A program made the position numbers and the translations under genes. The notes beneath the pieces were generated by a model. That model ran no database searches. It was not told the DNA's origin and saw nothing but the letters and a program-made list of their open reading frames with translations. Below are positions 51,748 through 52,083 of a DNA stretch of 64,000 nucleotides, in pieces (positions within the stretch are counted from its first letter, which is position 1; each line of letters opens with the position of its first letter). The stretch is taken from NCBI RefSeq assembly GCF_053078305.1, contig NZ_CP166879.1; one strand, given 5' to 3'.

Positions 51748-52083
51748 CAGAAGCGATCCTCTTATGAGATGTAGGGTGACATGGCGATGCTTATTTCGTA
51801 GCCATAATCTAAAAATATCTACATTTCTGAAAAATGCGCACAAATGCGACATATTGTTTTCTTATTGTGATCAAAAACAACAAATTAGTAACATTTAACG
51901 TAGGGTATTAAGGCAAAGTGAGACAGGAAATGAATAACTAAAGCAACAGGTTAGGGGGGAATTACCATCAGAGAACAGATTATCTGGTCGATAAAAAACA
52001 GTAAATGGCTTCAATGCAAAATGACCGTTAGTAAACTAAACATATTATCTGCCCCGTTTTAGCGGGGCAGATATAACATTAAA

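Follow-up and report, generated by a model that had tools for sequence, protein, structure and literature searches.

The stretch of DNA analysed here (64,000 nt; the window) contains, at positions 51748-52083, an intergenic region flanked by csiD and ygaQ, both of which lie on the minus strand, with lhgO following csiD. The csiD gene (50770-51747; ATG at 51747-51745) encodes a glutarate dioxygenase of 325 aa; it was assigned from the ORF list, from the name glaH given to it in the RefSeq annotation of matching E. coli genomes, and from its 97% amino acid identity to CsiD of E. albertii. The ygaQ-like ORF (52084-54336) encodes a 750-aa product, named alpha-amylase family protein in the same RefSeq genomes, and its assignment draws on the ORF list, Pfam, K-12 b4462 and 60% amino acid identity to its E. 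albertii homolog. The Pfam matches were to Alpha-amylase and Alpha-amylase_C, both weak but above threshold. The K-12 ygaQ gene (b4462) is a pseudogene, whereas the copy in the window is an intact ORF, a fact that the preliminary description of this region had missed, as it had the CsiR operators treated below. In many RefSeq genomes, only an "alpha amylase C-terminal domain-containing protein" is annotated at ygaQ, which suggests that the gene is often disrupted. Read along the minus strand, the order of elements is ygaQ, a hairpin, a spacer, the csiD promoter and csiD.

A four-way alignment of the window with K-12, a B2 O2:H6 strain and E. albertii delimited a conserved block of 145 bp that comprises the csiD promoter and leader (51748-51892). 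Between this block and the ygaQ hairpin lies a variable AT-rich spacer (51893-52045), within which the homology to B2 strains, which have no ygaQ, fades at approximately 51946-51953. Nothing is annotated at the K-12 counterpart of the spacer, and an Rfam search of 51600-52300 at a permissive threshold returned zero matches. Three further candidates were set aside: a 39-aa ORF on the minus strand (51895-52014), which was rejected as a gene because it spans the non-conserved spacer; a plus-strand promoter-like site (52021-52048), taken as a chance occurrence since one was found and 2.2 were expected; and a second terminator-like site (52143-52131), also ascribed to chance, with a stem of only 5 bp and a position within the ygaQ coding sequence.

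The surroundings of the two genes are variable. The ssrA gene is located at 62793-63155 on the minus strand, and the interval from ssrA to csiD (54895-63155) contains no prophage in the window. It carries a tRNA with a CAU anticodon (54895-54969), an ORF with DUF5507/DUF5508 (55722-57116, plus strand) and an AIDA/pertactin autotransporter of 1569 aa (57923-62632, plus strand). The matching tRNA beside ygaQ is annotated as tRNA-Ile in AP027800, and K-12 has ileY at this place. In AP027800, the interval holds an integrase, a recombinase, two ParB-like genes and IS3 copies; in B2 strains, it holds almost nothing. Elsewhere in the window, a tRNA-Ser(GCU) gene followed by four copies of tRNA-Arg(ACG) occupies 20251-20978, a cluster that resembles serV-argVYZQ of K-12. 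The 1569-aa autotransporter recalls K-12 ypjA, an adhesin-like autotransporter gene located next to ileY (PMC5493296).

Within the conserved block, a TGTGA motif (51866-51870) is followed by the 6-nt spacer TCAAAA (51871-51876) and by ACAAC (51877-51881). A motif of this form had been noticed previously at approximately 51868-51884; the motif itself is correct, and its coordinates had been given 2-3 nt off. Compared with the 22-bp palindromic CRP consensus AAATGTGATCTAGATCACATTT, the 22-mer at 51863-51884, with its 16-mer core at 51866-51881, is made up of one consensus half (TGTGA, 5 of 5 positions; TCACA on the csiD sense strand) and one weak half (2 of 5) separated by 6 bp. As a motif, it is unremarkable: it has three mismatches to TGTGA-N6-TCACA, and 160 matches of that quality were present in the window against 217 expected from shuffled sequence, which is not above chance. 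The motif is therefore informative by virtue of its position and conservation, not of the sequence match alone. There is no second TGTGA or TCACA anywhere in 51748-52083, the TCACA half and the spacer are unchanged in K-12, B2 and E. albertii, and on its upstream side the conserved block reaches 8 bp beyond the 22-bp site.

In K-12, binding of cAMP-CRP and CRP-dependent expression of csiD were reportedly established by Marschall in 1998 and Germer in 2001, and these studies, together with that of Metzner et al. in 2004, are said to have dealt with the K-12 csiD promoter and its modulation by H-NS and Lrp. A later summary lists cAMP-CRP, Lrp, H-NS and CsiR as the factors that control csiD (PMC6265302). 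Expression is described as relying solely on sigma-S and CRP in the title of Marschall 1998 (cited in PMC6265302), and Germer et al. 2001, as cited in PMC2859248, found the promoter to be sigma-S-dependent and to be activated optimally by CRP from a site centred at -68.5. The K-12 csiD promoter is the same locus as that in the window: between the CRP box and the ATG the two sequences are nearly identical, sharing the TCACA half and the layout and showing only point differences. On the csiD strand, the weak CRP half reads GTTGC in K-12 and GTTGT in the window; the base directly upstream of the first CsiR operator is T in K-12 and A in the window; and one leader base differs (AAATGAGC in K-12, AAATAAGC in the window). 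We regard it as almost certain that the TGTGA half-site is the cAMP-CRP box published for this promoter.

The CRP site is centred at 51873.5, and we used this centre together with the -68.5 spacing, as reported in PMC2859248, to place the remaining promoter elements. On this basis, we infer that transcription of csiD starts at A51805, equivalent to about 2,788,927 in K-12, which gives a putative -10 hexamer TATTTT (51812-51817, positions -12 to -7, minus strand) and a predicted 5' untranslated region of 58 nt running from the start to the ATG (51748-51805, minus strand), with a Shine-Dalgarno sequence, AAGAGGA, near its 3' end. A scan of the csiD strand detected no promoter of the sigma-70 type with a -35 element, as is expected for an activator-dependent sigma-S promoter, and the leader showed no notable RNA structure (z = -0.39). 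If the start at 51805 is right, the csiD transcript would open with AUG GCU ACG AAA UAA, a leaderless mini-ORF of four codons (MATK; 51805-51791, minus strand) that is conserved in K-12, in B2 and, with a UGA stop, in E. albertii; this may well be a coincidence within a conserved block.

The footprint of CsiR on the csiD promoter comprises two primary sites, TTGTN5TTTT and ATGTN5TTTT, which are 6 nt apart (Knorr et al. 2018, PMC6265302), and occupancy of the promoter by CsiR has been detected by ChIP-seq (PMC5217608). In our pattern search, each consensus matched exactly once, at 51843-51831 (TTGTGCGCATTTT; TTGTN5TTTT) and at 51824-51812 (ATGTAGATATTTT; ATGTN5TTTT), both on the minus strand and with the 6-nt gap as published. 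Both operators lie inside the SPR and footprint fragments set by primers MS170/171 and MS177/178 (PMC6265302), and primer MS177 (CTTTTGTGCGCATTTT) begins at the first operator. The two primary sites are identical in K-12 and the window. The first site reads TTAT in place of TTGT in B2 and E. albertii, and the second reads CTTT in place of TTTT in E. albertii. With the -68.5 spacing, the published operators would extend from -38 to -26 and from -19 to -7, so that they fall over the core promoter. Two relaxed CsiR-like patterns were also seen on the minus strand, TTGTTGTTTTTGA (51871-51883), which overlaps the weak CRP half, and ATGTCGCATTTGT (51840-51852), which overlaps the first primary operator. 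These could be the two secondary CsiR sites that the text of Knorr et al. 2018 mentions without giving their location; if they are, binding of CsiR and CRP might compete.

Could TGTGA-N6-ACAAC be a chance match, with the functional CRP site of csiD elsewhere, or be conserved mainly as a secondary CsiR site? The former would be in keeping with the lack of enrichment of such motifs in the window, and the latter with the overlap between the weak CRP half and TTGTTGTTTTTGA and with the fact that a probe of Knorr et al. beginning at the CRP position holds two unspecified secondary CsiR sites (PMC6265302). A chance match is, however, hard to reconcile with a site that is invariant, that stands at the edge of the conserved block, that has no alternative TGTGA or TCACA in 51748-52083, and from which a coherent promoter layout follows at the -68.5 spacing; we regard either version as highly improbable. 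Searching papers for the literal CRP-box sequence returned nothing relevant, and a search of supplements to the Cappable-seq, SMRT-Cappable-seq, Term-seq and Crp ChIP-exo papers gave no entry for csiD or ygaQ. The same observations on uniqueness, conservation and layout uphold the suggestion of the preliminary description that the region upstream of csiD fits control by cAMP-CRP and sigma-S.

The second element of the interval is a stem-loop at the 3' end of ygaQ (52046-52073, minus strand), which was recovered by inverted-repeat, folding and terminator scans. Its perfect stem reaches 11 bp (TATCTGCCCCG/CGGGGCAGATA at 52046-52056 and 52063-52073; UAUCUGCCCCG/CGGGGCAGAUA in the RNA), of which 7 are G-C pairs, and encloses a 6-nt loop (CUAAAA); it is followed by the tail AUAUGUUUAGUUU. 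The stem begins 10 nt past the TAA of ygaQ and is oriented on the sense strand of ygaQ and csiD. A hairpin, ctgccccg-tttta-cggggcag, had been placed at 52051-52075; it is present, with a core that in fact reads ctgccccg-ttttag-cggggcag and lies at 52049-52070, so that the loop has 6 nt, not 5. The hairpin alone has a predicted folding energy of -19.9 kcal/mol; for the surrounding 71 nt of the minus strand, the value is -24 kcal/mol (z = -5.4 versus shuffled sequences). It is the sole perfect inverted repeat of at least 11 bp with a loop of 3-10 nt in the 64-kb window, in which first-order Markov simulations gave an expectation of approximately 0.33.

With its GC-rich stem, short loop, position after a stop codon and U-containing tail, the hairpin shares the features of intrinsic (Rho-independent) terminators; it departs from them in its interrupted U-tract (AUAUGUUUAGUUU), whose score is not better than that of random local sequence. 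A simple terminator scan accepted the tail AUAUGUUUAGUUUAC, which has 5 T in 8 bases. The TransTermHP-style tail score was -2.62, a value equalled by 47% of random tails of the local composition, and it fell to -2.29 when only the 8-bp GC core was taken as the stem. The K-12 hairpin differs from that in the window by one loop base and contains primer MS161 of Knorr et al. (PMC6265302). No 3' ends from the ygaQ region were present in the Term-seq and SMRT-Cappable-seq supplements, which is uninformative since ygaQ is a pseudogene in K-12.

Among 5426 complete E. coli genomes, the hairpin was found in 4126, in every case at the point where the amylase-like gene has its 3' end, and it is gone where ygaQ is gone. 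Its identity was at least 95% in all but two of the 4126 genomes. Each of these carries it at a median of one place and at two at most, on the chromosome and never on a plasmid. B2-type genomes that have neither ygaQ nor the hairpin keep the csiD promoter block intact.

Outside E. coli, a protein-based scan of species-representative genomes identified only one ygaQ locus, that of E. albertii; the C-terminus of YgaQ, written as a degenerate DNA pattern, gave zero matches in this set, which evidently contains no identical C-terminus. The gene order in E. albertii, tRNA(CAU)-ygaQ-csiD, is that of the window. The promoter block is 88% identical to its E. albertii counterpart at the nucleotide level, whereas the adjacent 153-nt spacer is 52% identical, which is indistinguishable from the 48 +/- 2% of shuffled sequence. 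In E. albertii, too, a hairpin follows ygaQ, beginning 17 nt past the stop codon and consisting of the arms ACUCUGCCCUG and CAGGGUAGAGU around a 10-nt loop, followed by UAUUUUUUGUUG. Its tail score is -4.42, within the top 4% of random local tails, and by these features it is a predicted canonical intrinsic terminator at the end of ygaQ. Between the two species, 8 of the 11 bases of the left arm are the same, three pairs have changed on both sides, one G-C pair has become G-U, and none of the 11 pairs is broken. From the identical arm bases, we infer that the two hairpins are homologous, the covariation being that of two lineages only, E. coli and E. albertii. Alternatively, the hairpin of E. 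albertii might have arisen independently as a terminator, because the sequences flanking the hairpins have no detectable similarity, and an independent origin would make the argument from compensatory changes weaker.

The E. coli hairpin is best read as the terminator or 3'-end hairpin of ygaQ, with termination in E. coli predicted from sequence. The suggestion of a terminator had been made in the preliminary description, and it agrees with the location of the hairpin 10 nt past the ygaQ stop on the sense strand, with its travelling with ygaQ in 4126 genomes, and with its E. albertii counterpart, which has a canonical U-tract. We weighed the possibility that it is not an efficient terminator at all, being instead a stem-loop that stabilises the 3' end as a barrier to exonucleases, or a leaky pause that allows partial read-through of ygaQ transcription toward csiD. 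The tail score, which equals the median of random AT-rich tails as against -4.42 in E. albertii, would accord with such a role, as would a stem that is nevertheless invariant across the sampled E. coli genomes. Yet the simple scan accepts the hairpin, its position after the stop codon and the canonical E. albertii version favour termination, and the exclusive dependence of csiD on sigma-S and CRP, as worded in the title of Marschall 1998 (cited in PMC6265302), counts, in K-12 at least, against substantial read-through. This possibility therefore seems to us unlikely. A related idea, which we consider more doubtful still, is that the U-tract decayed in E. coli and was kept in E. albertii, the near-invariant stem being retained in E. 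coli for something other than efficient termination. If the stem has been kept for another role, it could act as a leaky attenuator or 3' stabiliser that couples ygaQ transcription to the starvation operon csiD-lhgO-gabDTP, or else be a structural hot spot for IS1 insertion and deletion.

An altogether different reading would make the hairpin an element acting at the DNA level, such as a palindrome bound by a protein, a recombination or att remnant at an island border, or a REP/ERIC-like repeat. A perfect palindrome in a variable region by an ssrA-linked hot spot, and one genome in which an IS1 end is joined within the hairpin loop, are what such an element might lead one to expect. Its occurrence as a single copy per genome and never on plasmids, its uniqueness in the window and the absence of an Rfam family speak against it, and so do the lack of an ssrA 3'-end repeat nearby and the location of the conservation and composition boundaries elsewhere. 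Moreover, the stem sequence differs in E. albertii and the pairing is kept, as would be expected of an RNA structure more than of a site that a protein recognises by its sequence. We give this reading hardly any credence. Assignment of the hairpin to repeated extragenic elements (REP/BIME, ERIC) or to an IS end was rejected on its single-copy occurrence, its uniqueness in the window and the lack of an Rfam match; assignment to an island border or att site was rejected since a search for repeats of the ssrA 3' end gave none above 10 nt and the B2 homology ends at approximately 51946, approximately 100 bp away.

It had also been proposed that the hairpin marks the junction between core and acquired DNA, and this proposal fails on both conservation and composition. 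At the csiD ATG, the GC content drops from approximately 52% to 33-40%, and it is low throughout ygaQ, with no step at the hairpin, and conservation ends 100-150 bp nearer to csiD. For the sequence shared with E. albertii, the limit is at 51892. Approximately 1,100 genomes, forming a class with 90-95% identity and 53% coverage, match the window only to 51946; in the B2 example, ssrA lies approximately 485 bp upstream of this point, and approximately 333 bp of other sequence replaces window positions 51947-62641. Comparison with K-12 and B2 recovered the hairpin in K-12, apart from the one loop base, and placed the limit of B2 homology at approximately 51946, not at the hairpin. Close to the hairpin and to the two limits of homology, no copy of the ssrA 3' end exceeding 10 nt was detected. 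Because the order tRNA(CAU)-ygaQ-hairpin-csiD is shared with E. albertii, ygaQ is no recent strain-specific insertion beside csiD; judged by these sequence comparisons, it is an old, fast-evolving neighbour of csiD that is absent from B2-type strains.

Insertion sequences were observed in this part of the locus in three genomes. The closest relative, AP027800 (99.2% identity), carries an IS1 copy with a 9-bp target duplication (GCAACAGGT) at 51943-51951, exactly where the B2 homology ends. CP132061 has an IS1 end joined within the loop of the hairpin (after ctgccccgtttt, approximately 52060), and its ygaQ is deleted. In CM165877, IS1 lies beside the end of the window match (approximately 52110, at the 3' end of ygaQ), and the remainder of ygaQ is deleted. 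These are three independent IS1 events in one small region.

Taken together, we consider it probable, at roughly 85%, that the interval consists of two ordinary and unrelated minus-strand elements, the csiD promoter and the 3' hairpin or terminator of ygaQ. At the former, a sigma-S-dependent promoter with no -35 element would be activated by cAMP-CRP acting on one strong half-site at -68.5, and CsiR, a GntR-family protein, would occupy two 13-bp operators at about -38 to -7 and repress csiD until glutarate releases it. At the latter, the hairpin would form in the ygaQ transcript, serve as its 3' end or terminator and, incidentally, shield csiD from read-through. All of these features match known biology, namely the K-12 csiD promoter and a gene-end hairpin, and are already known.

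For sigma-S selectivity and for activation by CRP from an unusual position, the csiD promoter serves as a textbook model, and its control by CsiR and glutarate was solved in 2018. Since the elements in the window are essentially unchanged from those of K-12, they matter little beyond annotation, for which three corrections follow: the hairpin is best regarded as a 3'-end terminator of ygaQ and not as an island border, the true conservation boundary lies directly upstream of the CRP box, and the core promoter of csiD would be covered by the CsiR operators.
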